A stretch of DNA of 64,000 nucleotides. Source: Syntrophales bacterium. GTDB lineage: Bacteria; Desulfobacterota; Syntrophia; Syntrophales; UBA4778. Position numbers and translations under genes: made by a program. Below the pieces are notes generated by a model that worked only from the letters and a program-made list of their open reading frames with translations, was not told the origin of the DNA and did no database searches. This document shows positions 8,726 through 28,882 of this stretch, piece by piece. Within the stretch, counting starts at the first letter, position 1, and each line of letters opens with the position of its first letter. The stretch is from NCBI GenBank assembly GCA_041946925.1, contig JBHGBI010000009.1:719-64718 (forward strand). The letters are read 5' to 3'.

Positions 8726-8743
8726 GATCGCCCTGGAACTGAA

Positions 8744-10210: not shown

Positions 10211-10246
10211 GTTATTACCTCCCTTTTTCAGACAATCTTCCCGGCG

Positions 10247-11134
10247 TCACCACCGCGGGAGCGCCTTAACGTCCAGGGGTCCTCCCCTCTGGTAATCATA
10301 CACGTTGAAATCCTCGGGCGTGGTCTCCTCTTTCAGGTACCTTATGCCCCGGTACAGGTTGGTCTCGATCTCGCTGACCGAGGCCACGCCCTGGGAAACC
10401 AAGAGATGGCGGTCATCATCCTTGCGGACGAGAAAGATCGCGGGGGTGGTATGGATATCGAGAAATTCCGCCAGACCTGCGTTTTCCCTTATGTTGATTT
10501 TCTTGACCTGCCAGTCGTACTTTTCCACGAAGAACCGCAGTATCTTTTCCTGTTCCAGGCAGAACTCGCATCCCGGCTGGAAGAAATAGAGAAGAGCAAA
10601 ATCCTCTTTCTCACTCGAGATCTTTTCCTTGACCTCCTTCATCTGGGTTCGGATAAGTGCGCCTCCCCCCGGGACCGAGTTCGGGTAGAAATTGGCGATA
10701 TTGAGACCGGGGTTTTTCTGCAAAACTTCGGCTGCAACGGCCGCGAACCGCAGGGCCCTGCGGCGGGAAATATCCTGGACGAGCAGGTATTCCTTCACAC
10801 TCTCCTCGGTCGACTCCATCAATGCCTTGTTGAGAAATTCCGTCTGAAGTTCCTTGAAGTCGTCCGGATGCATCCTCATCAGCTCTTCCGGTCGGTAATC
10901 ACTGATCCTTGGCATTTTCCTCGCCTTCTGCGCAGGATCCTCTTCGCCCCCTTGCGGCGCCTTTTCGGGCTCCTTCTGGTACCACCACCATCCCTTCCTC
11001 GAAGAGTCGTTGTACTGCGGCGCGCTGCCGGACGCGGCGGGGGAATCCTCCCCGGTCGCATATACAGCCGGAGACAGGAGAAGAAGGCAGACAAAAAAAA
11101 CTAGCCGCCTAAAAAAGAGCGTGAACTTTTGCAT
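10247..11134 (-). CDS. traF: Conjugal transfer protein TraF (thioredoxin-like)
   Basis: GWWWYQKEP, LLYFFQPGCEFC (CxxC), TTPAIFLV; start re-called at ATG 11134 with GGAGA RBS. Confidence 0.9.
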   Translation of the reverse strand: MQKFTLFFRRLVFFVCLLLLSPAVYATGEDSPAASGSAPQYNDSSRKGWWWYQKEPEKAPQGGEEDPAQKARKMPRISDYRPEELMRMHPDDFKELQTEFLNKALMESTEESVKEYLLVQDISRRRALRFAAVAAEVLQKNPGLNIANFYPNSVPGGGALIRTQMKEVKEKISSEKEDFALLYFFQPGCEFCLEQEKILRFFVEKYDWQVKKINIRENAGLAEFLDIHTTPAIFLVRKDDDRHLLVSQGVASVSEIETNLYRGIRYLKEETTPEDFNVYDYQRGGPLDVKALPRW

Positions 11135-11648
11135 GGATATCTCCGACACTGACAAACCCGAAATACCTGGAATCGCAGCTGTCGTTGTGGTCGCCCGTGA
11201 CAAAAACATATCCCGCCGGCACCTTGCCGTTATATTCGAACTGCTCCAGGGGATCGCCGGAAGAGCTCCGTTCTCTGGCCGTTCCGATGAAACGGCCGTT
11301 GCAGAAATAGCTTCTGCCGTCCTGCCTGAGGTCCTGTCCCTCGAGACAGGAGACCCGCTTTATGACAAGAGGGACGTCTTCAACGGGGCCGAGCTTTTTT
11401 CTGAAGAGTTCTCTCAGGGTCTGGTTCCTCTCGAGCACCCGGCTCATGCTGAACATCACGTAGTCACCGTTCTCCACGCCGGCCGAGGGATTTCGATCGG
11501 TGATCAGGAAAACCCGTTTCTCGAGCGAAGGCGTCAGCGTCACGGCAAACCTGGACGGAATCATGGCGCCCGCGGCGAGCAGAGCAACCATGAAGATAAC
11601 GACATTGAGGCTGATTTTTTTCGCCAAAGGCTCATGGTCACGGTTCAA
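11109..11648 (-). CDS. trhF: S26 family signal peptidase (pilin-processing TrhF type)
   Basis: TLTPSL (Ser), IKRVSCLEG (Lys), GDHNDSCDSRYFG. Confidence 0.88.
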   Translation of the reverse strand: MNRDHEPLAKKISLNVVIFMVALLAAGAMIPSRFAVTLTPSLEKRVFLITDRNPSAGVENGDYVMFSMSRVLERNQTLRELFRKKLGPVEDVPLVIKRVSCLEGQDLRQDGRSYFCNGRFIGTARERSSSGDPLEQFEYNGKVPAGYVFVTGDHNDSCDSRYFGFVSVGDIHAKVHALF

Positions 11649-12027
11649 TCAGCTTCACCCCTTTAAGGACCGCATCTGCCCGCAGGACGATATTGTTGTC
11701 GCCGAGCGAGTTGAGCTTATTCTCGAATTTATCCATGCTGGCCTTGAACTGTTCCTCTGTAATCTTTCCGTTCAGAAACAACACTTTCTGTGCGGAAACA
11801 TACCCGATGACGTCCATGGCGACGATTTTCGGCGCAAAACAGCAGTGATAGGTAAAGACGGCCGCCGCAGACACGACAAGGCTCACGGCAAGGGCTATAA
11901 GAACTGTGCCGGCCCGGCCACGGGGCCTCTCTTTCACGGCCCCGGTTTGGGGGGCGACTTCCCGGATAGCTTCGGTTTCTTCCGCCTTCCGGGGCGCCTG
12001 ATCCTCTTTTAATTCCTCGTTGTTCAT
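11638..12027 (-). CDS. TrbI F-type-like single-pass membrane protein
   Basis: One N-terminal TM, KIVAMDV motif, helical body, NIVLRADAVL end; position next to trhF. Confidence 0.6.
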   Translation of the reverse strand: MNNEELKEDQAPRKAEETEAIREVAPQTGAVKERPRGRAGTVLIALAVSLVVSAAAVFTYHCCFAPKIVAMDVIGYVSAQKVLFLNGKITEEQFKASMDKFENKLNSLGDNNIVLRADAVLKGVKLIEP

Positions 12028-12120
12028 TATTTGCTCTCCCTTTCAGACCATTTGGCCTTCCTAATACAATATACGTCGGGACATATCATTGCGGGCCTAT
12101 GTTGCTGAAAATATTGTGTT

Positions 12121-12188
12121 AAAAAAGAGGGCGGGACGAAAATAGAGGCGCTCCAACCACCTTGAAAAAGCGCTCCGCCCGTCCCGCC
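12121..12188 (-). terminator. Extended hairpin plus U-tract inside the tra cluster (after trbC)
   Basis: Perfect 9-bp stem GGCGGGACG/CGTCCCGCC with an inner GAGCGCT-type helix, then TCTTTTTT on the minus strand. Confidence 0.6.
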
Positions 12189-12209
12189 GCCCCAAGTTGC
12201 CCTCAATTC

Positions 12210-13250
12210 CTATTGAGAATGCCCGATTTTTTTCAGCAGCCGCTCCAGAAACCCGCTTTTAGCCTCCCTGTTCAGGCTCTCAAGGGCATATTCGACCGAG
12301 ACGTCACCGGAGACGGACACGAAGTCGTCTGCCTTTGCATTGTATTTCGTGCCTTCCCCCATCATCGGGTCGCGGATGGTCAGCCCTCTGGCATATACGA
12401 AAGTCGGGACCTCCCCGATTTTATAACTTCGGAAAAGAAGAGGATCGATCTGGACGTTTACCCTGTACATTTCGCACTGCGTCGACTCGTGGCCGCACGT
12501 CTGGTCTCTTTTCATTATTCCGGTTATGAAATCAATGGTAGGCATCATGTGCGTCATGCCCCCGACAAACCCCCTGAGCACTACCGTGATCCCTGGATCT
12601 CCGAGCTTGTCGAGAGAAGCCATGTAGTTTCTCAGGGTGCTTTCAGGGACCGAGGATGAGATGAAGACGTACACCCTTTCGGATCCCGGCTCCCCCGATG
12701 CAGGCTGGAACCCCCCGGGGGCCGTGGCATTCGGGTAGTAATCTTTCAGCACTTCAGGAAAAACACCGGAAAGCTGCCTTTCCCTTTCTGCATCGATCCT
12801 TTCCTGGAATTCGTTGGACCTGCGGTAATCCGCCATGGTTTGGGCTCTCTGCTGCGCTTCGGCCCGGTAAGGATTATCAGGGACCGCAATCTTTTTCGAA
12901 TAAGACTCGGCGGAGCGCCGGGCCCTGTCAACCGCGGCCATATCAAACTCCCTCATCGGCGTTTGCCAGCCGTTGCCGTCGGCGCCCACGACCGTATTGA
13001 CCCAGGGCCTGCCGTCCACATAAACCTGGACCCGTTCCGTGTCGTCCGGAACATCGACGGCGATGTCCGATATGCCCTGGGCGCAATGTTTTTCGGACGA
13101 TTTCACGTATACGCGGTTCCCCTCAACCCTATCGAGTCGGCAACACTGGTTGGGCACTTTCACCTGGACCTTCAAGGCATAAACATGGGGGACGAACAGC
13201 GCCGTCAGAATCATGGAAAACAAGAAAATTGTACGGAACAGATAAACCAT
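12210..13250 (-). CDS. trbC: Type-F pilin assembly protein TrbC with N-terminal extension
   Basis: VYVFISSSVPESTLRNY, VVLRGFVGG, VQIDPLLFRSYKIGEVPTFVY, SVSGDVSVEYALE; start re-called at ATG 13250. Confidence 0.88.
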   Translation of the reverse strand: MVYLFRTIFLFSMILTALFVPHVYALKVQVKVPNQCCRLDRVEGNRVYVKSSEKHCAQGISDIAVDVPDDTERVQVYVDGRPWVNTVVGADGNGWQTPMREFDMAAVDRARRSAESYSKKIAVPDNPYRAEAQQRAQTMADYRRSNEFQERIDAERERQLSGVFPEVLKDYYPNATAPGGFQPASGEPGSERVYVFISSSVPESTLRNYMASLDKLGDPGITVVLRGFVGGMTHMMPTIDFITGIMKRDQTCGHESTQCEMYRVNVQIDPLLFRSYKIGEVPTFVYARGLTIRDPMMGEGTKYNAKADDFVSVSGDVSVEYALESLNREAKSGFLERLLKKIGHSQ

Positions 13251-13261
13251 AGGTATTTCCT

Positions 13262-14380
13262 TTACCAATCCAGTTCGGGACCGGCCGTGCCGCTCGTATC
13301 CCACAGGGCGCTGTTGCCGGCGCTGCTTCCCGAGGCGTTCCCGCCGCTGCCGGATCCCCCCAGGCCGATCGCGAAGGCGCAGCACGATCTCCTCCGGAAC
13401 TGCTGCCAAGCGAAGTTGTCGCCGTAAAACGGGGGATTCTTTCCCGTTGCCCACATCATGTCACTGCGGCCGAAAGGATGGCACCACACGTCCCGGACAG
13501 GTTTTGCGACATGATGCCTGAAATTGTGCTTGATCCAGATGGGGGTGTGCACGCAGCCGCAGACATTGACGGCCGTGTCGCAGGCCAGGCCCTGCCTCGC
13601 CATAAGAAACTGGGTGCGTGCCGCGATGCCCTCGTGCGCCATGAGCATGACGGAGTTATTTTTAAAACCGGTAAGTGGGTAGACATTGCCGGCTGAGGCC
13701 GTGCACCAGAAAAGAGGGCTTATAGAGAATCCAGCATTCGACGAGACCGAGTCCGCGATGCACGCCATCCCGGCGACAGGGTTGGCGAAGAGGAGCGCCT
13801 CCGGCGCAATGACCATGGAGAGCAGCGAGTTCGTCCACCTCGGGTCCACCTCGGTAATATAGGCGAGGTCAAACCCGCTGTGCTCGACGCATGCCACGTC
13901 CGTGGCGATTTCCATTATCGCCCACCAGGGCGCGATCATGTAATGCGAATGCGCAAAAGTCTCGCCCGCCTGGTCGTGCTTTTTGGCGGTGGCCTTGGTC
14001 GCCCCGGACTGGAAACCGGTTGGATTGCCCATACCTATCCCGACCGACGGAAAGCAGTAAGGAGTTGAAACGGTTTCGACGATACGAGCCGGCTCCCAGA
14101 AGCTTATCGGGATCCCGATCTTGAAAAAGGGCGGGTTTATCGCCGGGCAGACGCATATCGGCATCTGGGCCGCGTCGGGATAGTTGTTTTCATACGGCCC
14201 CGGGAAGACCTGGATCCCCGCTATACTGAACGGGAATATACATTGCCAGCAGACATCCGTGACCGGGTTCATCGGCACGCCTTGCGGGCACACGGCAAGA
14301 GCATTATCCGCGGTTCCGGCGCAGAGGAGAGCCAGGACAACCAGGCAAATAGCCCGTCTTTTCCGGTTACCTGACTGCAT
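13262..14380 (-). CDS. traU: Conjugal transfer protein TraU
   Basis: NPVTDVCWQCIFP, ISFWEPARIVE, DLAYITEVDPRW, RRSCCAF; start re-called at ATG 14380 (GGAGG RBS). Confidence 0.93.
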   Translation of the reverse strand: MQSGNRKRRAICLVVLALLCAGTADNALAVCPQGVPMNPVTDVCWQCIFPFSIAGIQVFPGPYENNYPDAAQMPICVCPAINPPFFKIGIPISFWEPARIVETVSTPYCFPSVGIGMGNPTGFQSGATKATAKKHDQAGETFAHSHYMIAPWWAIMEIATDVACVEHSGFDLAYITEVDPRWTNSLLSMVIAPEALLFANPVAGMACIADSVSSNAGFSISPLFWCTASAGNVYPLTGFKNNSVMLMAHEGIAARTQFLMARQGLACDTAVNVCGCVHTPIWIKHNFRHHVAKPVRDVWCHPFGRSDMMWATGKNPPFYGDNFAWQQFRRRSCCAFAIGLGGSGSGGNASGSSAGNSALWDTSGTAGPELDW

Positions 14381-14978
14381 ATTCCGAAACCTCCATGAAC
14401 AGGCCTTTCTGGACAATTACGCATGGAGCCGCCTCGATCTGGAGCCGCGAGGCCGTCTCCTGGTCCAGGTAATAGACCGGCCGGCCAAGCTCCTTTGCGA
14501 GTCCGTAATAAGATCCGTCGGACAGGAGCAGCATCGTGCGGATATCGCCGAGAAGACCCGAATCTTTCAGCCACTTGACCTGGTTACTGTCGCTTTCGTC
14601 GATAACGACCAGTATATCCGGGAAGAAGATGTACTCGAGAGGATTGAAGGTGTATCCCCTGGGGTAAAGGATCCCGCCCTTGCCGTCCGGTATATCGTAG
14701 GGAAGCGTGTACGAAACATCCACATTCCGAACCCTGTCCTTCAGGGCGGCCGGAAGCTTTTTGATGTTCCGGGGACGATAGCCGAGGATCTTCTTCCTCC
14801 ATTTTTCTTTGTCGAAGACCCTGTCCCAATCCACGGATTTGGCCCTGTGCTCAAGCTCGGCGAGCGCATCCGGCTCCGCTATCCTGTAAACCGTCCCGAA
14901 ATTTCCGAGCCTGTGCCCCGCCGCGAAGACGGCGGGCGTGAAAAGGGCAGCGATGAACAGCACCAATACCTTCTTCAT
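14367..14978 (-). CDS. traW: Conjugal transfer pilus assembly protein TraW
   Basis: FGTVYRIAEPDAL, DGKGGILYPRGYTFNPL, RPVYYLDQ..RLQIEAAPCVI. Confidence 0.92.
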   Translation of the reverse strand: MKKVLVLFIAALFTPAVFAAGHRLGNFGTVYRIAEPDALAELEHRAKSVDWDRVFDKEKWRKKILGYRPRNIKKLPAALKDRVRNVDVSYTLPYDIPDGKGGILYPRGYTFNPLEYIFFPDILVVIDESDSNQVKWLKDSGLLGDIRTMLLLSDGSYYGLAKELGRPVYYLDQETASRLQIEAAPCVIVQKGLFMEVSEYAVR

Positions 14979-14985: not shown

Positions 14986-17900
14986 TTACCTGGTGTTTTG
15001 GTAAAAATTCTGAATGTTCCCGCCCATGTCGGTTATGATGGACTGCTGCGCCCTGGTGACGATATCGCCGAAGTACTCGCTCAGATCAATCTGGCTGAAG
15101 TCGAGCATCTGGAATTCTTCGGCCGTAAAGCCGCGGCAATCCGGGCTTTCCGCGCTGCCGAAACCAGCGGGGAATTTCTTGAGCTGCCCCCTCCCCTGCT
15201 CCTGGATGATGCGACCCAGCTTTGAGTTGAAACAGCAATAAACGTTCGCTTTCTGCACGCAGCCGATAAGGGGCCACTTTTCCTTGCAGTAATCGCCGAG
15301 GTAGTGGCAGACGCCCGCGGCGACCAGCCCCATGGTTTTTTGATCCTGCTCGCCGCATACCTCCTTGATGGGACCGAACGCACCCTCGCTCGTATCGCAG
15401 CAGTTGAAGAAATTGGTACTCCGTCCCCCCGTCCTGCACTCGCTTGCCTGACCGTTGAAAATAAGGACCTGGCCCTCGCACTCTCCGGTGCTCTCGTTGA
15501 TTTTCCCGTCATTGTGGTAACTCGAAAGGTCAATCTGGTTCTGCTGTGTCGGCATTGAAGTCATCATAAAGCACTGAATATCGGTACACTGTTTTATCCC
15601 GGAGACCGGGTTGGTAATGCACGCATATTGCTCGCCATAGGGGCAGTTCTGGACTCCTCCCGTGCATTTGTCCTGGTCGGGATCGTAATTGCCCTCGAAG
15701 CACAGAGGCGCCGCGGCGCACTGCTTTGTGGTCTGGTCGTAAGTGTACGTGTTCGGGCAGTCGTATGCGGCTTCGGATACGCACAGATCGAGCGACGAAG
15801 AGTACGTGCCCGGCTCCGGGCAGGGGGGAGTCGCCTCGCAACGGTCATCCGCCGGCTTGAACGTATAGGATGCGGGGCACAGGTCCTGCCCGGGCACTGA
15901 GCACATGGCGAGGACCGTGTCGTAAGCGCCCTCGTCGCAGACCGGCTCCGGAACCATCCGGCAGAAACCGGAAGCATTATCCCAGCCGTACCCGGCCGGG
16001 CAGTCATTGATGTATGCGAGCTCGCACCTGTCCCTGTCGCCTACGAAGGTTCCGCCCGAATCGCACGCCGGGTCTTTCTCGCAGATGTCAAGGGCGGCGT
16101 TGTAGACAAAACCCGGGGGGCATTTGGAGGTATCTATGTGTATCTCGCAAAGGTTTGTCCCGGCATTCAATATGGCGCCCGAAGGGCACGTCACGACCTG
16201 CTTGCAATAATCGATAATCGCATCATAAATGAAATCCGCGATCGCGCAGCCATGGACCGGCTCGATTTCGCATTTATCCCTGTCCGCGCTATAGGCGAAG
16301 CCGAACGCGCAGAGCGGGCCTTTCTCGCAGATGTCAAGAGCGGCGTTGTAAACGAATCCGGAACCAGGGCATTTTGATGTATCCAGTATGACTTCGCACA
16401 GGTCGGTGACAGGATTGAGAGACGCTCCTGACGGGCAGGAGACGGCCTGGGTGCAGTAGTCTATAGCGGCCTCGTATGCGAATCCCGGAAGATCGCAACT
16501 ATGGAAGGAGGCTTTTTCGCATTTGTCGCGCGCCGCCGAATAACTGAAACCCGCGCTGCAGTCAGGATCCTTCTCACAGATATCCCTTGCCGCGTTATAC
16601 GTGAATCCCCCGGGCGGACACATTGCGCTGACAAACAGAATTTCGCAGAGATCCGCGGCGCCGTTCAGTGATCCGCCCTCCGGGCACGTGACCGCCTGAA
16701 CGCAGAAGTCAAGAGCCGCGCTGTACACGAAGCCGGCCAGAGCGCACGTGTGCGTCGGGTTCTCCACGCAGAGATCCCTGCCGGCGTCATAGGTGTAATG
16801 TGCGGGACAGTTGTTTATGCGGGCGGCGTGGCATTGGTCATTGGCGCCGTTGTATGTGCCGGGCGCCGGGCAGGCAGGCGCCGCCTCGCATCTGTTGCGG
16901 CCCGCAACATAGGAGTATTCGGCGGCGTTGCAGACCGGGAAAGAAGATGCCTGGCACATGTCGCGGGCGCCGCTCAGCGTCCCCCCCGAAGGGCAGCTGA
17001 CGGCCGCCTGGCATACGCCGTTGTCTGCATCCCATGCATACCCTGCAGGACAGTTCGGCGTCCCGGAAGCGACGCAGTAATCATAGCCGCCGTTGAGCGA
17101 TCCTCCCGCGGGGCAACCCGGCGCGTAATCGCAGGTCGAGCCGGAGAGCTGCCAGGGGGCGCCCCAGCAGTAATAGGTGGGTCCCGTACAGGCGACGGTC
17201 CGGCTGCAGTTGGCGGCGCACGTGCCGGAGTCGCCATACTCAGAGCCGGTCAACGAGCAGGTCCAGTAGTAAACATATGTATTATTATAATAAATTCTAT
17301 AATGAGCGGTGGCGCATCCCTCGATCCAATCGATATGGTCCCAGTACCCCCAAAGACCCTCTCCCCCGGCAGGGCAAAAGGTCATTATGGGGCAAGTCAC
17401 AGGAGTGTAGCTCGTATTCCAACAGAAGTTACCTGGCCCACTCCCGCAGCCCGAATCCCCTGTCGCATACTGATAGCAATACGCCGTGGAAGAAACACGC
17501 GAATGCTGGCTGCAAGTTCCGGACTGTACACAGTTTGCGGCGCATGTGCCGTAATCACCGTAATTTCCCCCGAGCGGGCATGAATAGTAATATGATGCCG
17601 AAGCAGTGCAGGCGTCCCAGCTTCCGTTATAGCTCCCGCCCGACGGACACGATGGAGACGCGATGCACAGGGACCACGGCGCATACCAGTTGTAGCCCGC
17701 GGGGCAACCCCAGCTCGATGGCGAGGTTTCGCAGCGGTCGCGGGCGGCATTGTAAGACCCCGGCGCCGGACACGGCGGGGCAATTTCGCAAGTCCCCCTC
17801 GCCGGCACGTAAACATATCCGCCCGGGCAGCCGTTTGTGTACCCAACGTAGCAGACGTCATTAGCCGTATCGAGTGTCCCGCCGGAGCTGCAAGTTGAAG

Positions 17901-20760
17901 CGGCGTAGCAGAGGGACTGCCCCGCGTCATAGCTGTAACCGTCCGCACACGTGTACCAGGCCGCGCCCTCGCACAGGTGGGTACCCGGAACGAACACTCC
18001 GCCGGCATCGCACGAATGCCCCGCCGTTTCCTCGCAGGTATCCGCGGCGACGGAATAGCTGCTTCCTGCGGGGCACAAAGGCGCTTGTTCGCATTTATCC
18101 GTAAGCGGGTTGTATGTATAGGCGCCCGGGCACAATGTAGAGGCCTCGACGCGGCACTTGTCTATAGCGGCGTCGAAAGTTCCGGCAATACAGATCGGGT
18201 CGAGCTGACACTGGTGGACAATGGCGTTGAAATCGCCCCCGTCGGGGCAGGAATGGGTGGGCGGTTCCACACAGGTATCGTTTACGGGCGAATAGTCGCT
18301 GCCCGCAGGGCAGGAAGGGGTTATTTCGCATCGGTCGGTGGGACCGTTGAATGTGAAGCCTGCGAGACAAAGGGTGTATGCCTCTATCCTGCATTTATCG
18401 ATTGCGCCGTCGAAGACGCCGAGGTCGCATCCGGGATCCATCTGGCATTTATGGGGCGCGGGGTTGAAAGCGCCGCCCCGAAGGCAGGAGTGAGTGGGGT
18501 CGGACAGGCACATCGCGATGCCCGCGGAATAGCTGCTTCCCGCGGGGCACGGCGGCTCGATCTGGCAATTGTCGTCGGCCCCGTTCCATGCAAAGCCTGC
18601 GGGACACAATGTTGCCGCCTCGATCCTGCACTTGTCTATGGTCCCGTCAAATGCGCCAAGAGAGCAGACCGGGGAAGCCTGACAGATGAGCCTTACGGGA
18701 TCATAGCTGTAGCCGGCGGCTGAACAGACAGGGGTCGATACTGTCTGGCACGCGAGGGCCCCGCTGTTGTAGATCCCGCCTTCCGGGCATTCCACTCTTT
18801 TCAGGCACGCATCGTAGCCGGCATAATAAACGAATCCCGAGGGGCATGAATCTGTGTCTATCGACTTGACGCATATATGCAGGTCCGTGTCCATCTGGCC
18901 GCCGGCGGGGCATTGGGTGTTCACGATGCAGGTATCGAGGACGCTGTCGTAATTATAGCCGGCAGGGCAGGTTATAACGGGCAGGACCTCGCATACGTCC
19001 CTTACAGGGTTAAGGGTGCCGCCGAACCCGCCCGACGAGCCCGCAGCGCAGATATCGACTGCCCTGTGGTAATTGGCGATACAGCCCATGAGAGGCGTGC
19101 AGGGCAGGTTGCTCGAACATTTGCCGGCCGAGCAGGGATATTCTCCAAGGGGACACACGGCCTGGATACCGTTGAAATATATCGGCGCGCCCGGGTCGTT
19201 TCGGGAGTTGCAGACGGCGCCGTCGCCGGAGCAGCTGTCGCCGGCGTAATGGTAAAGGTAAAGGGCGTTGCCCACGGCGGTCCCGCTGACGATATCGCCA
19301 TGGTTGTTATACGTCGCCACCTGGAGGGTCTCGCCGCCCGAAGCGGCTCCTCCGGAGATCACAATGCGGGTGTCGCCCGCGCACCCCTGCAGGCGGGCGC
19401 AGCCGGAGTTGTCGCAAAAATAGCCCCAGAGCTCCGTCCCCCCATTCGCGGGGACTATGTGGGTAAGCATCTGGTGCGTGCCGTCGCACGGATTGGTCTG
19501 TATCGCCCCCGAAAATGTGAAAGACGTCCCGGAAAAGCAGGTGGACCCGAGCGTAGCTCCCGTCCTGCTTTTAAAAACGAGACAGTTGCCCGATGAAACA
19601 ACCGTGACAAGGGCTGATGCGCCGCTTCCCGCGGCGGTAAAGGAGCCCGTCCCCGCAGTCGCGACGGATTCATTCGAGCAATCGGCGCTCTGCCGGCACG
19701 CCGCATTGCAATCAGTCGCCAGGGCGTAGGTGGTTGCGGTATTCGGGCAGCGGTATGCCGTGGCGACCTGGTTCGTTTCGCATCTCGCCCGGGCTTCCAC
19801 GTACACGCCTCCCGGAGGACAGTCGGTCCCGTCGTTCGGGCAGTATGCCTCGGACTGCCCGCTCAAGCAGTCCTTGGCCCCGAGAGGACAGTACTCCTGC
19901 CCGTCAACATTCGTGCAGTTCACGATCTCACCCGAATTTATATCGACGAAACCGTCCCCGTTCAGGTCCCTGGAGCAGACCCGCTGTCCCGGCTGAATCT
20001 GCCCGCCCATGCTTTCGTCAAAGCAGGAATTCGGCGAGCACCGGTAGGCGTTCCCCACGTTCACGCAGCTGAATTGCCTTCCCAGGGGACACGAGTACTC
20101 GACCCCCTGCATCCTGATCTCGCCGGCGGCAAAGGCCGAGCACCCCGCCGCCCCACATGCGGCTCCCGTGAAGGCGATCGTGTCATTGGCCGCGGAGACC
20201 TCGAGAAAACCATCGGAAGAGCCCGCTGATCCTGAAAAAGCAGCCCCGCTCACCGTGATAGACCCCACGAGAGTCTCGGAACAGTTCAGGAGATCCTTGC
20301 AGCCGTAAATGTCGATGCGGTTCCCGCTGCCGATGAACCGGCTTATCTTTTCCGCCTGTGCCGCGCCCGTCACGGTCCCCAGGGAGAAGGAGATTCTTCC
20401 CGCCGTGTCCTCGCCGCAGGAGGTCGCCGTGCACTTCCAGCCCGAAAAGGAGACCGTGTTCGTGGCCGAGGAGGCTGTAACCCGTGTGAATCCGCTTTTC
20501 CCCAGGATGGAACCGGGGGGAAGTGTCGCGCTCCCATTAACAACATAGACCCCGGCGTTGCAGTCGATCGCATCGAGAGGGCAAAGGGGCGGAGTGGTGT
20601 TCGAGCATTCAAAGTGTTCCGTGATTTGATCTATAACCCCGTCGTGGTTGAGGTCCTTGACGCATACTGCTGATTGTGCCGGCAACAGGAAAAACGCGGG
20701 TAGAACCAGGGCGATTGAGGCTCTGAGCGCCAGCCCTAGTATTTTTGACCCGTTGTGCAT
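14986..20760 (-). CDS. traN: Giant Cys-repeat TraN adhesin (carries the TraN C-terminal domain)
   Basis: Signal peptide; C-terminal YCCFNSKLGRIIQEQGRGQL...PDCRGFTAEEFQMLDFSQIDLSEY (TraN hallmark); about 48 CPxGxxYN...C modules. Confidence 0.92.
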   Translation of the reverse strand: MHNGSKILGLALRASIALVLPAFFLLPAQSAVCVKDLNHDGVIDQITEHFECSNTTPPLCPLDAIDCNAGVYVVNGSATLPPGSILGKSGFTRVTASSATNTVSFSGWKCTATSCGEDTAGRISFSLGTVTGAAQAEKISRFIGSGNRIDIYGCKDLLNCSETLVGSITVSGAAFSGSAGSSDGFLEVSAANDTIAFTGAACGAAGCSAFAAGEIRMQGVEYSCPLGRQFSCVNVGNAYRCSPNSCFDESMGGQIQPGQRVCSRDLNGDGFVDINSGEIVNCTNVDGQEYCPLGAKDCLSGQSEAYCPNDGTDCPPGGVYVEARARCETNQVATAYRCPNTATTYALATDCNAACRQSADCSNESVATAGTGSFTAAGSGASALVTVVSSGNCLVFKSRTGATLGSTCFSGTSFTFSGAIQTNPCDGTHQMLTHIVPANGGTELWGYFCDNSGCARLQGCAGDTRIVISGGAASGGETLQVATYNNHGDIVSGTAVGNALYLYHYAGDSCSGDGAVCNSRNDPGAPIYFNGIQAVCPLGEYPCSAGKCSSNLPCTPLMGCIANYHRAVDICAAGSSGGFGGTLNPVRDVCEVLPVITCPAGYNYDSVLDTCIVNTQCPAGGQMDTDLHICVKSIDTDSCPSGFVYYAGYDACLKRVECPEGGIYNSGALACQTVSTPVCSAAGYSYDPVRLICQASPVCSLGAFDGTIDKCRIEAATLCPAGFAWNGADDNCQIEPPCPAGSSYSAGIAMCLSDPTHSCLRGGAFNPAPHKCQMDPGCDLGVFDGAIDKCRIEAYTLCLAGFTFNGPTDRCEITPSCPAGSDYSPVNDTCVEPPTHSCPDGGDFNAIVHQCQLDPICIAGTFDAAIDKCRVEASTLCPGAYTYNPLTDKCEQAPLCPAGSSYSVAADTCEETAGHSCDAGGVFVPGTHLCEGAAWYTCADGYSYDAGQSLCYAASTCSSGGTLDTANDVCYVGYTNGCPGGYVYVPARGTCEIAPPCPAPGSYNAARDRCETSPSSWGCPAGYNWYAPWSLCIASPSCPSGGSYNGSWDACTASASYYYSCPLGGNYGDYGTCAANCVQSGTCSQHSRVSSTAYCYQYATGDSGCGSGPGNFCWNTSYTPVTCPIMTFCPAGGEGLWGYWDHIDWIEGCATAHYRIYYNNTYVYYWTCSLTGSEYGDSGTCAANCSRTVACTGPTYYCWGAPWQLSGSTCDYAPGCPAGGSLNGGYDYCVASGTPNCPAGYAWDADNGVCQAAVSCPSGGTLSGARDMCQASSFPVCNAAEYSYVAGRNRCEAAPACPAPGTYNGANDQCHAARINNCPAHYTYDAGRDLCVENPTHTCALAGFVYSAALDFCVQAVTCPEGGSLNGAADLCEILFVSAMCPPGGFTYNAARDICEKDPDCSAGFSYSAARDKCEKASFHSCDLPGFAYEAAIDYCTQAVSCPSGASLNPVTDLCEVILDTSKCPGSGFVYNAALDICEKGPLCAFGFAYSADRDKCEIEPVHGCAIADFIYDAIIDYCKQVVTCPSGAILNAGTNLCEIHIDTSKCPPGFVYNAALDICEKDPACDSGGTFVGDRDRCELAYINDCPAGYGWDNASGFCRMVPEPVCDEGAYDTVLAMCSVPGQDLCPASYTFKPADDRCEATPPCPEPGTYSSSLDLCVSEAAYDCPNTYTYDQTTKQCAAAPLCFEGNYDPDQDKCTGGVQNCPYGEQYACITNPVSGIKQCTDIQCFMMTSMPTQQNQIDLSSYHNDGKINESTGECEGQVLIFNGQASECRTGGRSTNFFNCCDTSEGAFGPIKEVCGEQDQKTMGLVAAGVCHYLGDYCKEKWPLIGCVQKANVYCCFNSKLGRIIQEQGRGQLKKFPAGFGSAESPDCRGFTAEEFQMLDFSQIDLSEYFGDIVTRAQQSIITDMGGNIQNFYQNTR

Positions 20761-22715
20761 ATAATATCCTTTCCCGCGTCATCTACAACGGACATGACTG
20801 TTGCCGCCTCGGCAAAGTCGTTCATGCACTGGCAGTCTTTCAGTATTTCTTCCCCCGGCCCGGCAGGACAGACGCCGTTTTCGCACCGGTGATAAAGAAA
20901 CTCGTGGGATACGTTATCTTTCTGGTAGTTGGTCCTCACCCCTGAGACTCCCGCCTGGGTATCGAGTTTTCTCCTTCGCGTGCGGCAGGCGTCCTCGCAG
21001 GGCTTCGGGGCCATTGCGCTTTTCATGGACAGATCCAGGCTCATATCCATGGTGGACCAGGCACCCGTATCCGATTTGGTGATATCTCTGAAACGATACT
21101 GCCCCGTTGAAGGGCTCCCGGCGATCGAGCCCACTACGGCGTCCGCTCTCGCCTTCGCATCAGTAAAATCGTATCGTTTGGCTGATTTACAGTAATACGT
21201 CCGCTCCTTCACCCACCAGTCCCGGCAGACATTGTGGTCGAAATTGCCCGTGAAAGTCTTGCAGGTGGCGACGGGCAGCACTCTGGTGGGGGAATAATTT
21301 CGGTAGGTATAGACGTCGTCGACACGCTCCTCCCGGATCTTACAGGACGCATCGGCTTCCATCGCGGAGCATCCGTCGGCGACGCTTTCCTGGACCTCGT
21401 CTTTTTTATCGGGCGGTTTGGAGCAGGCCTCGCCCGCGATCGGCGTTGCGCCTTCGTAGTGGCTGCAGTCTATCGAGCCTGCCGGGGTCGTGTAATAGAG
21501 CCCCTGGACAAATCTCGCATCTCTGCTCGGGCAGGGCGGAAATGTTACGGCCTGATACTCCGCCGTGTATATAATGTGTTGCACGCCGCCGCAGGTGTAA
21601 ATGATTCGCGCGTTCTTAACGATGCCGCCCTGGGGATCGCCGCACAAACCGTTTCCTATCCCGTACGTGTCCCCGCCCTCAGGCGAGATAGGCAATCCGA
21701 AATAGCAATAACCGCCTCCACCGCCGGTGGAAAACGTTCTGGGCGTATAATCATTGGCCGGTATGATGCAGAGTTGCGTGCCGCTGTCGTAGCTGCCGTC
21801 GTCAGGGCAGGTGAAGCTCTTCAGAATATTTATGGAGCGGGTGATCCTGCACGATCGCAAGTCTCCCGCGGTTTCGCTCATCGCGGGGGAGTTGATCATG
21901 AGGCTGTAGAGGCTTCCGGGATCCCCTGACTGGGATACAACCTCGGATTCAGCGGCGCCGAGAAGAGCCGCATCGCTCTGGGGATCGTAAAATTTAGACG
22001 GCGATGTCCCGGAAGGAGCCGTGCCGCTCCTGGCGCACTTTTTTACGTCCTGCCCGTAATAGGTGATGAGGGTCGAGTCGATCTTCGCGTCCGCTACGGC
22101 GTAACGCCTGGTCCTCGCTTGGATCGCGCCGACGATTCCGCCTCCCAGGTCACGAAGCACGACATCGAGATTCTGCCAGACGAGCCCGCTTCCGCAGGCG
22201 GTATTTATGCAGTAGCAGCCACCAAGCGCCGTAACCCCGACCTCATTTAGAAGCAGCTGACCGGAATCACTCAATCCCCATTTATAATAGCGGCAGTTAT
22301 CCCATGTCCCGGTGTCGCAGGTGATGACGCCGTTTCCACATATGCCGGAAACAGGAAAAGGAAGCTGGGTGACAAAATCCACGTTGCCGTCGAGGTCTAT
22401 ATCCTGGCTGATGCGGACGAGCTGGAGATCACCGCTCCCCCCGGGCTGGACGAATACTTCCAGGAACCTGGAAGACGAGGGGCACGAAAGCTGACCCTTG
22501 AAGGAACTCGCCCCGTCGAGCGTCTTCATAAGGGTGTTTTCCGAGGTGACCGGATCCGATATGTTGCTTTTGAACGAGTCCGTCGAACCGAATTTTTCCA
22601 CCCCCAGGTTGCCCATATCGCTTCCCGCGGACTTCGCATGGTCAATTTCGCTTTGCGCCGGCAGGCAAACGGGCAGAAGCACAAAGAGAAAAACAACAAG
22701 TCCTGTGATTTTCAT
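20736..22715 (-). CDS. TraN N-terminal-like exported Cys-rich protein (first half of a split TraN)
   Basis: Own signal peptide, SGICGNGVITC, GGCYCINTACG, CEDACRTRR, CQCMNDFAEAATVM; lies between traC and traN. Confidence 0.7.
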   Translation of the reverse strand: MKITGLVVFLFVLLPVCLPAQSEIDHAKSAGSDMGNLGVEKFGSTDSFKSNISDPVTSENTLMKTLDGASSFKGQLSCPSSSRFLEVFVQPGGSGDLQLVRISQDIDLDGNVDFVTQLPFPVSGICGNGVITCDTGTWDNCRYYKWGLSDSGQLLLNEVGVTALGGCYCINTACGSGLVWQNLDVVLRDLGGGIVGAIQARTRRYAVADAKIDSTLITYYGQDVKKCARSGTAPSGTSPSKFYDPQSDAALLGAAESEVVSQSGDPGSLYSLMINSPAMSETAGDLRSCRITRSINILKSFTCPDDGSYDSGTQLCIIPANDYTPRTFSTGGGGGYCYFGLPISPEGGDTYGIGNGLCGDPQGGIVKNARIIYTCGGVQHIIYTAEYQAVTFPPCPSRDARFVQGLYYTTPAGSIDCSHYEGATPIAGEACSKPPDKKDEVQESVADGCSAMEADASCKIREERVDDVYTYRNYSPTRVLPVATCKTFTGNFDHNVCRDWWVKERTYYCKSAKRYDFTDAKARADAVVGSIAGSPSTGQYRFRDITKSDTGAWSTMDMSLDLSMKSAMAPKPCEDACRTRRRKLDTQAGVSGVRTNYQKDNVSHEFLYHRCENGVCPAGPGEEILKDCQCMNDFAEAATVMSVVDDAGKDIICTTGQKY

Positions 22716-22719: not shown

Positions 22720-25311
22720 TCATCCCGGATTTGCGCCGCCGCTCCTGTATTTGCGCATCATTTCCAGGATCGCGCCCTTGTAGTCCAGGCCCTGCTCTTC
22801 GATTATCCTGTCGATTTCGGAAACTTCGCCCGGGTCGGACGTATAGAGGTAATAAGAGAACGGATCAACGATGAGCCTGGCCGGTCCTTGCCCGTAGGGA
22901 GTATCGAGAAATATCTCCGAGTACTTCGGAATAGCCTTGCGTATGGACTTGAGAAGTTCCATCCCGAAGTTCCCGTAATCTATAAGGTTCTCGCTCTTCG
23001 CCCTGTCAAAATCGGACGACTCCAGGTATATCTTGAAAGCGGAGTTGGCCATGATGACACTCCCCACGCTCCCGAACTGTTTCAGATCGTTTATGCTCTG
23101 GGTTATGACAGTGAAGCTCCCGTTGTACTTTCTCGCCCGGCGATAGCCTTCTTCGATGACGTCCTTCTGCGCGCTTCCTTCCTTGATGAATTGCCAGCTC
23201 TCGTCGAAGACCACGAGTTTCATGCGGCTGCGGTCGGAGAGGTACAGGTTTTTCGTGACAGCATCGATTACGAGAAGCATGACCACCTTGAAGAGCTCGG
23301 GCTGCGGTTTCAGAGACTCAAGCTCGAGGACGACGAACTCGTCATCGGCGATATTGAAATTGGATCTGCGGTTGAACCACTTTCCATATGAGTGGCCCGA
23401 CGTGAATTCGGTCAGGTTGAAAGCAAGCGTCTGCGCAGTGTCCCTGAAGAAACTGCTCGTGTTTCCGTTCCCGAATTCTCCGGTGGCGTACTCCGGGAAA
23501 CTCGCGAGATACCTGTACACGGTATCTACAGTTGCATCCGTACCTTCCTGGCTCCACGCCCAGCGCACCGCCGCCTTGATGAGGGACATCGCAGTCTCCG
23601 CTATGTCGGCGGGGATGATGTCCGTCGATGAGAAGCACATCGTGACAATGACCCCGACAACGGCCCGGAGCTGAAAATCCACGTCTTCCATGTCGACGAA
23701 CGTGAAGGGATTGAGGCAGATGTTGGATCTGGCGTGGAAATCGAGGTATTTTGCGTTGAAAAGCCCCGACATTTTCCGATATGAGCCGCCGATATCGATG
23801 ACCCTGATCATTGCATTGGCCGCGTAGTAGTTGTAAATGATGTTATTGATCGTAAAACTCTTTCCGGAGCCGGAAGCGGCGGCGATAAAGGCATTGTAAT
23901 TACCCACTCCCTTGCCGAAAAAATCGATGCCGATCGGCTGACCCTTCCGGCCCACGAAGAGAAGCTGAGGCGGACCGCCGCCGGCGAAATCCGCCTGGAC
24001 GGGCAAGGTCAGCGCCACGGCATCGCCGGGAGCCGTGAAGTCGCGCTCGAGATTATCGATGTTTTCACCGTCCGCAAAGTAAAGGCCGAAAGGCATCGAC
24101 GCAATGAAAAGCGGGGGCAGGATCCCCTTGTCCTCCTGCATGACATAACCCTTCGCCTCCCACATCCTCTTGATCCTTGCTATGCTCTCGGCGGCGAGCT
24201 TCTCGTCTTCGCTCCATACCCACATGGTCGGGATGATCCTTACAAAGGGAACCCCCTTTTCGATGTCGTCGACCGCTCTCATGTACTCGTCTTTCTTGCG
24301 CATGAGCGAAGGGGCGAATGAACCGGCGTACTGCTGCTGAAGAACGAGATTGCATTTCATGTGGAGCTTCATCTTGAGGTTCTGGAAGACTATGTTGAGA
24401 CTGTAGAGAAAAGGCGTCAGGATCTGGTTAGCATCGGATGTTACCCCCCAGACTCCGCCGAAGAGCTCATTGGTCTGGAACGCGTCCACTTCTTTGGGAT
24501 AGTTCTTCACGGTCGTGCAACGGAAATAACGCTTCCCCATCTTTATGTGCGACATGGTTTTGGTAATCACGGTATCCGAGAAGATGACCTGCCGGTTGAT
24601 AGGAATGCCTTCGTTATAATGACCGTTGTTGCCTGACGGCCTGTCGTTGAACACCTTCCGCATCCAGTCCACGAGCCCTTCAGGGATCAGGGCCTCCGGT
24701 TGCAGCCGCGCGCCTTTCAGAATTTCATTCACGTTCGAATAGATGTCGAGGAGGTTGATATCGGAGCCGTTGTCATTTTTCGGGGGCATCTTGAGGCAGA
24801 CGAAGAGTCGAAAATCCCTGATAGGCATCCTCTGCAGGATGTCGAGACCGTTCACTCCGTCGAGGAGGAATCGCGAAAAGCGCTCCGCGGCCTCTTTCAC
24901 GACGGGCAGGTTTCTCGTCTTGCTGTTTTTGTACTGCTCTATACAATCCTCTATGTACTTGTCCGCATAAAGGATGAACTGCATGATGGAGCCGTTCGGG
25001 ATCCCGATCCGGAAGAGCCCTTCGAGTGTCTTTATGGTCTGTTCGCCGGCAAACGCAAGGGGGGAACACTCCCAGATAAATCCGACGGTATCATCTATAT
25101 TGTGATAGGCCCTGGTGTCAGGATCGTATGCGATCCAGGGAAGGCTCGGGGAGAGTTTGTCCCGCCTTGTCATTTCATTGATCTCCAGGCGGGAAATATC
25201 CCGGTCTTTTCCAAAAAGGAGGTTTAAAAGACTTTTCAGCATTCCAGAATTTTCCGCAGCCGGTTTGGACCCCTCTGTCCCGGCCGATACGGTATTCGTT
25301 GTTTCCGTCAT
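22720..25311 (-). CDS. traC: VirB4-family ATPase TraC
   Basis: Walker A AASGSGKS, VIDIGGSY, LNPF, Walker B VVFDESWQF, YRRARKYNGSFTVITQS. Confidence 0.96.
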   Translation of the reverse strand: MTETTNTVSAGTEGSKPAAENSGMLKSLLNLLFGKDRDISRLEINEMTRRDKLSPSLPWIAYDPDTRAYHNIDDTVGFIWECSPLAFAGEQTIKTLEGLFRIGIPNGSIMQFILYADKYIEDCIEQYKNSKTRNLPVVKEAAERFSRFLLDGVNGLDILQRMPIRDFRLFVCLKMPPKNDNGSDINLLDIYSNVNEILKGARLQPEALIPEGLVDWMRKVFNDRPSGNNGHYNEGIPINRQVIFSDTVITKTMSHIKMGKRYFRCTTVKNYPKEVDAFQTNELFGGVWGVTSDANQILTPFLYSLNIVFQNLKMKLHMKCNLVLQQQYAGSFAPSLMRKKDEYMRAVDDIEKGVPFVRIIPTMWVWSEDEKLAAESIARIKRMWEAKGYVMQEDKGILPPLFIASMPFGLYFADGENIDNLERDFTAPGDAVALTLPVQADFAGGGPPQLLFVGRKGQPIGIDFFGKGVGNYNAFIAAASGSGKSFTINNIIYNYYAANAMIRVIDIGGSYRKMSGLFNAKYLDFHARSNICLNPFTFVDMEDVDFQLRAVVGVIVTMCFSSTDIIPADIAETAMSLIKAAVRWAWSQEGTDATVDTVYRYLASFPEYATGEFGNGNTSSFFRDTAQTLAFNLTEFTSGHSYGKWFNRRSNFNIADDEFVVLELESLKPQPELFKVVMLLVIDAVTKNLYLSDRSRMKLVVFDESWQFIKEGSAQKDVIEEGYRRARKYNGSFTVITQSINDLKQFGSVGSVIMANSAFKIYLESSDFDRAKSENLIDYGNFGMELLKSIRKAIPKYSEIFLDTPYGQGPARLIVDPFSYYLYTSDPGEVSEIDRIIEEQGLDYKGAILEMMRKYRSGGANPG

Positions 25312-25314
25312 TAT

Positions 25315-25758
25315 TTATTCCTCCTGCTCGACGAGATAATCCCCGATTACCCACCTGGGTTCATCGGCCATGATGAAAACGTAACGCATCATGTATAGCT
25401 CGTTTAAGTCACCCTTGTACGGAAGCATGAGTACCCGCATGACCCTGGGGGGAGCCAGGAGCGGGGTATTGGGCTTTTTCAGGAGACCCGCAAGTTTCCT
25501 GTTTACTTCCCTCTGGTACATTGTCTCGGAATTTCCCGTATCGGCGGAAGAGCCGTTGCGGCTGAGGGATGACTCTTTCTTTTTGTCCATGGATTGTCTG
25601 TAGGCGCTTTCCACCTGGACGCACTGACCCCTGTCGTAACTGGGACAGGCAAATTCGTCGCCGTACGGATTCATCGCCTTTCCGATCGATCCGCATCCGT
25701 AAATACCGAAAAGGCAGATCGCCAGGGACGCACATACTGTTAAAGGGATCCCTCTCAT
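25315..25758 (-). CDS. traV: Outer-membrane core lipoprotein TraV
   Basis: Lipobox-like IYGC, EFACPSYDRGQC, PRVMRVLMLPY..ELYM..YVF. Confidence 0.9.
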   Translation of the reverse strand: MRGIPLTVCASLAICLFGIYGCGSIGKAMNPYGDEFACPSYDRGQCVQVESAYRQSMDKKKESSLSRNGSSADTGNSETMYQREVNRKLAGLLKKPNTPLLAPPRVMRVLMLPYKGDLNELYMMRYVFIMADEPRWVIGDYLVEQEE

Positions 25759-27035
25759 CTCTGTTTCCCTCCCGTATTGATTTCCTTTATGTTGAGCTCA
25801 GTCCCTTCGGAAACCACGAGCGTGACGTCACGAACAGCCCCGACCTCCACGACCGGCATGGTCTGCCTCGCAAGGTCAAGATAAAACTTCTGAAGTTCCT
25901 TGGATGCCTGGGAAAGTCCCTCTCCAAGACCCGCCTGCGCGGTCTTGCCCGTATCAATGCTCTGTGTCGTGCCGAGCGGGCTTACCGCAACCGTCTGGGA
26001 CTGTGCCTTGAACGCGTCGCCGATGCCGCCGAAGAAACCCGCCAGGAGCGAGCGCGCAATAACCGATCCCATCTTGGATATGACTTCTCCCCGAAGCCCG
26101 ATTTTTCCATCCGTATCGACGACGAAGCCTTTAAGCTCCTGGTCTATTACGGACGTACCTTTTCTCGAGAGGCATGAAAGGTTTTTAATCCGCAGATGCG
26201 CCCTTTCATCGGCAAGGCTCCCGTAGCCATCGCTGATCACAAAACAGCCTTTGAGATTGGCCCGGACTTTATTGGGAAGGAAAGCGAGATCTTTAATACG
26301 CAATAAAACCGGTACAGGGTTTGACTTTCCGCCCTCTACCGTCGGGGCATCGAGCCCCGATAACATAGTCGCCGCCATGAAAGAAGGTGGAAGATATACC
26401 GAGTTCTTTTTGCTTTTTTTTTCCGCGTCGCGGTCTTTCGACTCGAGGATGTTCTTGTTGGTGGCTATTTCAATTCCGCCCACGGTCTCCCTGGTGTCAT
26501 CCTCGATTTTTCCCTTCTGCTCCGAAAAACCCGGCGCACCCGGTGACGAGACAGCCTGGCTCGGAGGAGGGGGGACGGGAATCGGAGGCACCACCGGCCT
26601 TGCGGCGGACACGGTCTTAACAACACTTGCAGGCGTGCCAGCAGCTGCCTGTGCCTGAGGTTTTGTGGGGCCGGTTTTCAGTGTTTCCCGGGCTTGCAAA
26701 GCCGGAGCCCCCGGTGTTGCGGAAGCCCTGGACTGTTCGCCTTCCATCAACTCGAGTCTTTTTTTCACTTCCTCGAAATCCTTTACGTACTTATCGATCT
26801 TCCTCTGTCCTTCAAGGTAAGCGGATTTCTCGAGCTGGTGCTCGTCTATCTTGATTTCTTTTTTCTGGACCTGTTGTTGAGCCGGCTGTGGACCTCCCTG
26901 TCGCGTCTTGGCGACGTAGCCCCCCAACCCGAGGGCAATACCGGCAGCAACCAGCAGGAAGATAACAAGAAATGATTTCCGTTTCGGTGCAAGGTCATTC
27001 CAGAATCCCCCCAACGCACGTTTAAGGAAGCTCAT
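25755..27035 (-). CDS. traB: TraB (VirB10-like) core complex protein
   Basis: TM, coiled coil, Pro-rich linker, YLPPSFMAATMLSGLDAPT, GCFVISDGYGSLADERA, MPVVEVGAVR. Confidence 0.94.
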   Translation of the reverse strand: MSFLKRALGGFWNDLAPKRKSFLVIFLLVAAGIALGLGGYVAKTRQGGPQPAQQQVQKKEIKIDEHQLEKSAYLEGQRKIDKYVKDFEEVKKRLELMEGEQSRASATPGAPALQARETLKTGPTKPQAQAAAGTPASVVKTVSAARPVVPPIPVPPPPSQAVSSPGAPGFSEQKGKIEDDTRETVGGIEIATNKNILESKDRDAEKKSKKNSVYLPPSFMAATMLSGLDAPTVEGGKSNPVPVLLRIKDLAFLPNKVRANLKGCFVISDGYGSLADERAHLRIKNLSCLSRKGTSVIDQELKGFVVDTDGKIGLRGEVISKMGSVIARSLLAGFFGGIGDAFKAQSQTVAVSPLGTTQSIDTGKTAQAGLGEGLSQASKELQKFYLDLARQTMPVVEVGAVRDVTLVVSEGTELNIKEINTGGKQR

Positions 27036-28872: not shown

Positions 28873-28882
28873 TTGCTCGCCT

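Follow-up and report, generated by a model that had tools for sequence, protein, structure and literature searches.

A giant TraN with two matched arms of cysteine modules that probably form an out-and-back stalk

In conjugation, TraN is the surface adhesin that stabilizes mating pairs of donor and recipient bacteria. Its tip determines the range of species into which a conjugative element can pass, and the TraNs studied so far, which come from plasmids of Enterobacterales and Acinetobacter, are 550 to 1070 amino acids (aa) long (PMC9246713, PMC13104618). What, then, is the additional length of a threefold oversized TraN of 1924 aa for? The traN open reading frame (ORF) that raises this question (1924 aa plus stop, with an ATG start and open) is located at positions 14986 to 20760 of a 64,000-nucleotide stretch (hereafter, the window; positions 719 to 64,718 of contig JBHGBI010000009.1) of a Syntrophales bacterium metagenome-assembled genome (MAG) of 2.64 Mb in 160 contigs (GCA_041946925.1). 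It and all other features of the window that are given with coordinates below are on the minus strand. We consider it likely that the protein is a stretched TraN of a chromosomal F-type type IV secretion system (T4SS), in which two arms of repeated two-Cys modules would zip together, one rung after another, to form a rod that keeps a variable, receptor-binding end piece (the tip) clear of the donor surface.

Two arms of cysteine modules around a small tip

The protein belongs to TraN through its C terminus, as the preliminary description of the window had stated: the PF06986 (TraN) model matches residues 1665 to 1879 with 77.4 bits (cutoff, 23; E = 1.6e−21). The NCBIfam equivalog models (TIGR02750, PRK12355, and PRK14876) align only with the C-terminal 140 to 250 residues and score below their cutoffs (98 bits versus 422 for TIGR02750 and 82 versus 603 for another model). 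Because only the C-terminal part aligns, we regard the protein as a TraN by domain and not as an equivalog of the characterized TraNs. The conserved C-terminal (base) domain comprises residues 1703 to 1924 (positions 14989 to 15654), as judged from PF06986, the partial match to TIGR02750, and conservation among homologs. At the other end, residues 1 to 31 (positions 20668 to 20760), ending in LLPAQSA before VC, read as a signal peptide; it was recognized by direct reading of the sequence rather than by a predictor, and its cleavage site is probably that of signal peptidase I, the lipobox being poor. With this signal-peptide-like N terminus and a total of 165 Cys, the protein is of the secreted Cys-rich type (at least 20 conserved Cys).

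The two arms were delimited by a scan for Cys spacing, in which each C-x(11-14)-C with a subsequent linker of 5 to 9 residues counted as one module. The N arm (residues 598 to 1058; positions 17587 to 18969) has 23 uninterrupted modules at residues 598 to 1051, and the C arm (residues 1198 to 1702; positions 15655 to 17169) has 25 at residues 1198 to 1699, so that the scan reproduced both the coordinates and the hand counts of the preliminary description (23 modules before the center and 24 to 25 after it). The module pattern given there, C-P-x-G-x(2)-[YF]-[ND]-x(4-5)-C, holds as a consensus but fits only 5 modules literally; a CP start is present in 29 of the 48 modules, and the strictly regular feature is the spacing of Cys. 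Modules are about 20 aa long, and their linkers alternate between 5 and 7 to 8 residues with few phase slips. Across the stalk region the scan finds 51 modules with a longest run of 25, against a mean of 11.8 modules and a longest run of 5 in 2000 residue shuffles. Given that the shuffles never exceed a run of 5, the regularity of the modules is not due to chance.

Both arms also contain a longer period. The N-arm super-repeat consists of three copies of four modules each (~79 aa per copy; residues 699 to 937; positions 17950 to 18666), and the C-arm super-repeat, which mirrors its position, likewise consists of three copies of four modules (~83 aa per copy; residues 1339 to 1586; positions 16003 to 16746). 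They lie 7 to 18 and 8 to 19 modules from the center, respectively. The copies are 49 to 62% identical within the N arm and 55 to 62% within the C arm, but only 34 to 47% between the arms. Given that the super-repeats are alike within the arms, less alike between them, and placed in mirror positions, we suggest that expansions of similar age took place separately in each arm at the same height. Tandem Repeats Finder detected no DNA tandem repeats in traN; together with the limited identity of the super-repeats (49 to 62%), this makes an assembly artefact by repeat collapse or expansion unlikely. Recent slippage or misassembly as the origin of the repeats is therefore ruled out, the repeats being old and diverged.

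The stretch between the arms spans 138 aa (residues 1060 to 1197), of which about 80 aa between two brackets are unique sequence. Bracket motif 1 (YSCPLGGNYGDYGTCAANCVQSGTC; residues 1059 to 1083; positions 17512 to 17586) contains the module-like unit CPLGGNYGDYGTC-AANC (residues 1061 to 1077). Bracket motif 2 and its transition to the C arm (WTCSLTGSEYGDSGTCAANCSRTVAC…; residues 1166 to 1197; positions 17170 to 17265) contain the module-like unit CSLTGSEYGDSGTC-AANC (residues 1168 to 1185). Both of the matching motifs that had been noticed earlier are thus in place, YGDYGTCAANC at residues 1067 to 1077 and YGDSGTCAANC at residues 1175 to 1185, each within a module-like unit that ends in AANC. 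The tip itself consists of residues 1084 to 1165 (positions 17266 to 17511).

For the fold of a single module, a lead comes from CBM_14 (peritrophin-A). Modules of the homologs P0010, P0003, and P0009 match positions 29 to 53 of the CBM_14 profile in 5 to 14 stretches (E = 2e−21, 3e−9, and 9e−8, respectively), and these positions correspond to a hairpin of the form CPxG-aromatic-N…C; the 1924-aa TraN itself (P0001) has no CBM_14 match. Because only the last third of the profile is matched, there is no complete chitin-binding domain. By analogy to the disulfide pattern that we take CBM_14 to have, each module may be a disulfide-closed beta-hairpin.

We propose that the base-tip-base topology of the characterized TraNs has been stretched by a repeat stalk. 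Beyond the signal peptide and a pair of accessory N-terminal domains, the polypeptide would run outward through about 24 two-Cys hairpin modules to a small variable tip, which would be held by the two bracket copies and a long two-stranded ribbon. A return arm of about 25 modules would then pair with the outward arm, antiparallel, in register, and rung by rung, and the conserved C-terminal domain would end the chain, seated at the outer membrane and the T4SS. Stalk length would change by duplication or loss of blocks of modules, retained only when both arms change, and the tip would be the part that binds the recipient and determines specificity. As a geometric guess, 24 rungs at ~1 to 1.5 nm each would give a rigid rod of ~25 to 35 nm.

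Concerted change of the two arms

Relatives were sought with the C domain only (residues 1640 to 1924) among 1.84 billion representatives. The search returned 3127 relatives at E ≤ 1e−3, the best 150 of which range from 205 to 3771 aa. A whole-protein search of GTDB genomes gave no relative, and the relatives used here came from protein databases and a genome search. Arm statistics are based on 42 full-length two-array representatives (clusters at 50% identity), because an automatic split at the largest gap, which gives r = 0.60 for all 68 proteins, fails in proteins with three or more arrays; the restriction is a selection, but one that does not favor equal arms.

The numbers of modules in the N and C arms of these representatives, which range from 3 to 34, are strongly correlated (r = 0.91, n = 42), and the correlation holds for phylogenetically independent contrasts on the C-domain tree (r = 0.925, permutation P ≤ 1e−4). 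The two arms differ by at most 2 modules in 33 of the 42, and the changes between sister pairs are matched as well (N/C changes of 7/6, 18/20, 5/4, 8/7, 7/5, 10/12, 7/6, and 5/4). A comparison of arm lengths among homologs had been set beforehand as a test of the out-and-back stalk, and the arms do not vary independently.

Individual insertions tell the same story. Compared to its closest homologs, P0002 and P0004, the 1924-aa TraN has an additional 159 aa in the N arm (residues 667 to 835) and 166 aa in the C arm (residues 1376 to 1541), which amount to 8 modules, or two four-module blocks, per arm; they are also absent from P0003. Relative to P0003 there are an additional 41 aa and 40 aa beside the tip. 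Given that the insertions and deletions are matched while the arms are only 34 to 47% alike, a single duplication cannot yield both.

The order of short and long linkers is mirrored between the arms. Counted from the tip toward the base, the linkers of the two arms agree at 21 of 22 positions in the 1924-aa TraN, at 28 of 29 in P0011, at 26 of 26 in P0008, and at 17 of 17 in both P0029 and P0032, whereas the direct, nonmirrored reading leaves 6, 6, 2, 5, and 5 mismatches, respectively. Under a null model that keeps the number of phase slips, the mirror agreement has P = 0.048 for this protein, 4e−4 for P0011, 5e−5 for P0008, 0.064 for P0029, and 0.045 for P0032. A direct relation of the arms, as tandem duplication would leave, is ruled out for the long-armed proteins, in which mirror matching is better than direct matching.

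The tip is the least conserved region, with 27 to 38% identity to close homologs versus 58 to 61% for the C domain, and this combination of a variable tip with a conserved C domain is also that of the characterized TraNs (PMC9246713, PMC13104618).

An independent replicate of the equal-arm design was found in an unrelated base protein. Directly upstream of traN, with a 25-nucleotide overlap, the window encodes a 659-aa Cys-rich secreted protein, P0179 (positions 20736 to 22715), which has no match to any Pfam or NCBIfam model. P0179 is stalk-less, and its pairing with traN is conserved, a homolog being also located upstream of traN in the P0002 locus. The related protein P0039 is homologous to P0179 at the N terminus, in the middle, and at the C terminus; its module arrays are an insertion that separates the middle segment from the C-terminal one. 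Members of this P0179/P0039 family share with TraN the bracket, the tip, the two-arm cassette, and the equality of the arms, but differ in their base protein. Their N and C arms number 2 and 2 modules (four proteins), 5 and 4, 11 and 11 (two proteins), 25 and 25, and 27 and 27; a tenth member, P0188 (1334 aa; 27 and 2 modules), is probably incomplete and was left out of this comparison. Because a cassette inserted at one point must return to where it started, its arms should be equal, as a hairpin requires. In loci L012 and L013, the P0179 homologs of 1887 aa and 1233 aa carry cassettes with arms of 25 and 25 and of 11 and 11 modules, and the adjacent TraNs (718 aa and 695 aa) are stalk-less. 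The stalk is on TraN in the window and in locus L007, and on the P0179-family protein in L012 and L013; in the four loci examined, it is thus on either gene but not on both.

Some relatives depart from the two-array plan. The largest, P0080 (3771 aa), has three long arrays of 34+5, 26+5, and 39 modules, and its stalk may branch or carry several tips. P0026, P0114, and P0159 likewise have more than two arrays.

Structure prediction, the tra locus, and rival explanations

Pairing of the arms had been proposed as a subject for AlphaFold predictions of fragments. Our AlphaFold2 (AF2) models, built from an alignment of nine sequences and read through the predicted template modeling score (pTM) and the symmetry of pLDDT (predicted local distance difference test), give it partial, indirect support near the tip but not in the outer arms. 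In the 486-aa fragment of residues 893 to 1378 (mean pLDDT, 64; pTM, 0.36), pLDDT reaches 80 to 89 only at residues 997 to 1092 and 1162 to 1252 and is below 50 in the tip core; the high-confidence zone is symmetrical, with ~4 modules next to the tip on either side. The fragment of residues 995 to 1255 (261 residues; mean pLDDT, 71.6) has a pTM of 0.49, which exceeds the ceiling of 0.40 for a single rigid arm of 104 residues. Two strands of 15 to 16 residues (residues 1083 to 1098 and 1154 to 1168; pLDDT, ~94) enclose a core of ~55 aa, and each bracket forms a short helix, that of bracket 1 on TCAANCV with a pLDDT of ~90. The model fits a two-stranded ribbon that would join the two arm ends.

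In the window, profile matches place traN within an F-type T4SS block with the gene order, on the minus strand, DsbC-like, TraE, TraK, TraB, TraC, the 659-aa P0179, TraN, TraW, TraU, TrbC, S26 peptidase, TraF, TraH, and TraG. The genes traC, traB (TrbI family), traK, and traE occupy positions 22720 to 28944, upstream of P0179, and the DsbC-like disulfide isomerase gene (positions 29496 to 30278), also present in the P0002 locus, stands at the head of the operon. Downstream of traN, positions 5576 to 14978 contain traW (positions 14367 to 14978), traU, trbC, the S26 peptidase gene, traF, traH, and traG. The block (positions 5576 to 30278) is bordered on both sides by housekeeping genes (pth, prs, ispE, clpB, and dnaB, and a PHO4 transporter gene). 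The DnaB of this MAG shares 74 to 79% identity with that of MAGs labeled Syntrophaceae, Syntrophales, and Smithella. All tra ORFs are intact, and the P0002 locus, from another genus of the same family, has the same tra gene order. Two products of the operon, the DsbC-like isomerase and the thioredoxin-fold TraF, would serve as redox helpers, and we count them in favor of the disulfide-stapled stalk. The S26 signal peptidase homolog between trbC and traF lies at positions 11109 to 11648.

Several observations weigh against the paired, tip-bearing stalk of a conjugative apparatus. The arms of the 1924-aa TraN are not exactly equal (23 modules plus a bracket versus a bracket plus 25), the arms differ by more than 2 modules in 9 of the 42 relatives, and the mirror test on the 1924-aa TraN alone gives P of ~0.05. 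In the structure predictions, pLDDT drops away from the tip, to 38 to 67 in the C arm past residue 1260, with a pTM of 0.36 in the 486-aa fragment; the AF2 support consists of pTM and pLDDT, through which contact between the arms is seen only indirectly; and Foldseek found no match to the 486-aa model in PDB at E < 0.1. The genome contains no DsbB homolog (a VKOR-like ORF at G000:C35:48272-48523 is subthreshold, with 20.4 versus 27.5 bits), a poor fit to a strict anaerobe in which 165 Cys would have to be oxidized. The whole MAG has no match to the TraI_2 relaxase model (MOBH, PF07514), the only relaxase model used, and the only coupling-protein model used, PF10412 (TrwB_AAD_bind), gave two short matches of 24 to 26 bits elsewhere in the MAG, none of them convincing. 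Given that these two models, searched in a fragmented MAG, gave no relaxase and no convincing coupling protein, the use of the apparatus in DNA transfer is an assumption; we nevertheless infer that the stalked TraN acts in conjugation. Either the T4SS stands alone or its missing genes are on unbinned contigs.

A bolder reading, which we regard as doubtful, is that the two-arm Cys-module hairpin is a portable, length-tunable spacer cassette, which would have grown and shrunk as blocks were duplicated in concert in the two arms (from 2 and 2 modules to at least 34 and 30) and would have moved between adjacent T4SS genes. TraN and P0179 would then form one surface complex in which either partner could keep the receptor-binding tip at a defined distance, and the relaxase-less locus would perhaps be kept for attachment to partner cells and not for DNA transfer.

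Among the alternatives to the paired stalk, the arrays could be independent, flexible tethers of disulfide-closed hairpins, strung like beads, with the center internal and the equal lengths due to coincidence or a shared history of duplication. The AF2 confidence, moderate to low in most of the arms, the lack of a structural homolog by Foldseek, and arm counts that differ by 1 to 2 here and by more in some relatives would all suit such tethers. We nonetheless find them improbable: the correlation of 0.93 in phylogenetic contrasts, the matched insertions in arms too dissimilar for a single duplication to explain them, and a linker pattern that is mirrored rather than direct all argue for pairing, as does the second family with exactly equal arms, in which an inserted cassette has to return to its start. 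On these mainly comparative grounds, and in view of the partial AF2 result, we retain the out-and-back antiparallel stalk with a distal tip that the preliminary description had put forward.

The architecture could also be as described but serve another function. Syntrophales are obligate partners of other microbes, and a stand-alone F-type T4SS without a relaxase might be kept for attachment to a syntrophic partner or for aggregation, or might be the decaying remnant of an integrative and conjugative element. The missing TraI_2 relaxase, the merely weak P-loop matches to the coupling-protein model, and the position of the tra block between housekeeping genes fit this explanation. We give it little credence, given that mobile DNA is often unbinned and that this MAG, in 160 contigs, was searched with a single model each for relaxases (TraI_2) and coupling proteins; that locus L013, with the same gene pair, carries a coupling protein; and that the tra ORFs are intact and the closest homolog, from another genus, has its neighboring genes arranged alike, as expected of a mobile element.

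Similarly improbable, the N arm of one TraN would pair with the C arm of a neighbor in a dimeric or polymeric stalk or lattice, an arrangement that also predicts equal arms and mirror patterns but against which stand the strands flanking the ~55-aa core of the monomer model, which put the arm ends side by side in one chain, the monomeric fold-back structures of published TraN models (PMC9246713), and the point insertion of the cassette in the P0179 family, most simply explained by an intramolecular hairpin.

Relation to known TraNs and the N-terminal region

The proposed stalk extends a topology that is already known. Published models of TraN show a variable tip and an extended N-terminal part, onto which the C-terminal part folds back, and all Cys of IncF TraN are predicted to be in disulfides (PMC9246713). 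The short IncF TraNs (550 to 660 aa; F, pKpQIL, and R100-1) share with the 1924-aa TraN the C-terminal Pfam domain, the role in the operon, and the conserved base with a variable tip. However, TraN of F (602 aa, 22 Cys) lacks a repeat stalk, its ~140-aa tip being flanked on either side by about one C-x14-15-C unit, whereas the 1924-aa TraN contains 23+25 modules, a total of 165 Cys, and two additional N-terminal domains. The medium (IncA/C, 880 to 950 aa), long (IncH, 1050 to 1070 aa), and V-shaped (Acinetobacter, 891 aa) TraNs also consist of a base plus a tip (PMC13104618). Their extra size is in larger base and tip domains (PMC13104618), in contrast to the long module arrays of the 1924-aa TraN, which we take to be paired. 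Giant TraNs of Geobacter and metagenomes, such as P0020 of Geobacter argillaceus (1527 aa; 17 and 15 modules), have the same succession of N array, center, C array, and TraN domain but different tips, N-terminal domains, and arm lengths, and in some of them the C domain contains a hydrophobic insert. Their annotation is by name only, and we found no description of their stalk in the TraN literature. Stalked TraNs are common in metagenomes, with hundreds of relatives of 1000 to 3771 aa, and the TraN of the window is not the largest.

On plasmids the module type is rare: a tblastn search with the N arm found it in 14 of 72,556 plasmids, from Shewanella, Vibrio, Geobacter, Geoalkalibacter, and Trichlorobacter. 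The same search gave no match in Xanthomonas plasmids; nine Xanthomonas TraNs of 1,882 aa have been mentioned without analysis (PMC13104618). The Shewanella plasmid matches (H1, H2, H6, and H7), whose module arrays are matched over ~1100 residues, are annotated as "Ig-like domain-containing protein" or as hypothetical, an annotation that, to judge from the matched arrays, probably misdescribes a stalked protein of the TraN or P0179 type.

If the stalk is as proposed, the architecture would be a new structural variant in which the TraN topology is kept and a repeat stalk added. Besides the tip, a second property of TraN would be evolvable: the distance of the tip, set by a modular stalk whose strands must change together. 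We suggest that the long reach would let the tip make contact through a thick surface layer, such as an S-layer, a sheath, extracellular polymeric substances, or long O-antigen. The module count would then be a measure of donor reach that can be read from sequence and set against the thickness of the envelope in probable recipients. The rules of the ladder (a 20-aa module, linkers alternating between 5 and 7 residues, and mirror symmetry) may also interest protein engineers, and the cassette in the family of the neighboring P0179 points to this unannotated protein as a candidate partner of TraN.

Residues 1 to 590 stand outside the symmetric two-arm design and were not covered by the preliminary description; residues 1 to 587 have no NCBIfam or Pfam match. 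Self-comparison revealed a base motif of the pattern C-x-x-D-L-N-x-D-G…C…CP…C in two copies, at residues 32 to 67 (positions 20560 to 20667) and 261 to 298 (positions 19867 to 19980), which are 47% identical (z = 10). The first copy (CVKDLNHDGVID…CPLDAIDC) opens an accessory unit (residues 32 to 250; positions 20011 to 20667), which is absent from the homolog P0004. In this unit the base motif is followed by domain A (~150 aa), which has three C-x4-5-C units, and by the closing motif CPLGRQFSC…CSPNSCF, which is similar to the beginning of the TraN C domain (residues 219 to 247 versus 1702 to 1731, z = 6.8). The second copy (CSRDLNGDGFVD…CPLGAKDC) belongs to a region (residues 261 to 361; positions 19678 to 19980) in which the module scan and self-comparison found one canonical module (residues 314 to 327) and a third bracket-type motif, YRCPNTATTYALATDCNAACRQSADC (residues 336 to 361). 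P0004 begins at the equivalent of this second copy, right after its signal peptide. The base motif (DLNxDGxxD, or DxNxDG) gives only nonsignificant EF-hand, dockerin, and FG-GAP matches, here and in homologs, and a calcium-binding loop at the base is for this reason only a guess.

Domain B (residues 362 to 560; positions 19081 to 19677), which ends in CPLGEYPCSAGKC, is a tip-type beta domain recognized by its homology to the central tip of P0003. Residues 336 to 564 are 34% identical to the center of P0003 (residues 834 to 1046, z = 18.8), and the N-terminal domain of P0003 itself shares 46% identity with the tip of that protein. On this homology, the domain B region may be an additional tip, close to the stalk base. 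The V-shaped TraN of Acinetobacter has two tips (PMC13104618); a single TraN is thus not limited to one, which is possibly relevant to domains A and B. The 1924-aa TraN may thus have as many as three domains of the tip type, of which two would be located close to the base.

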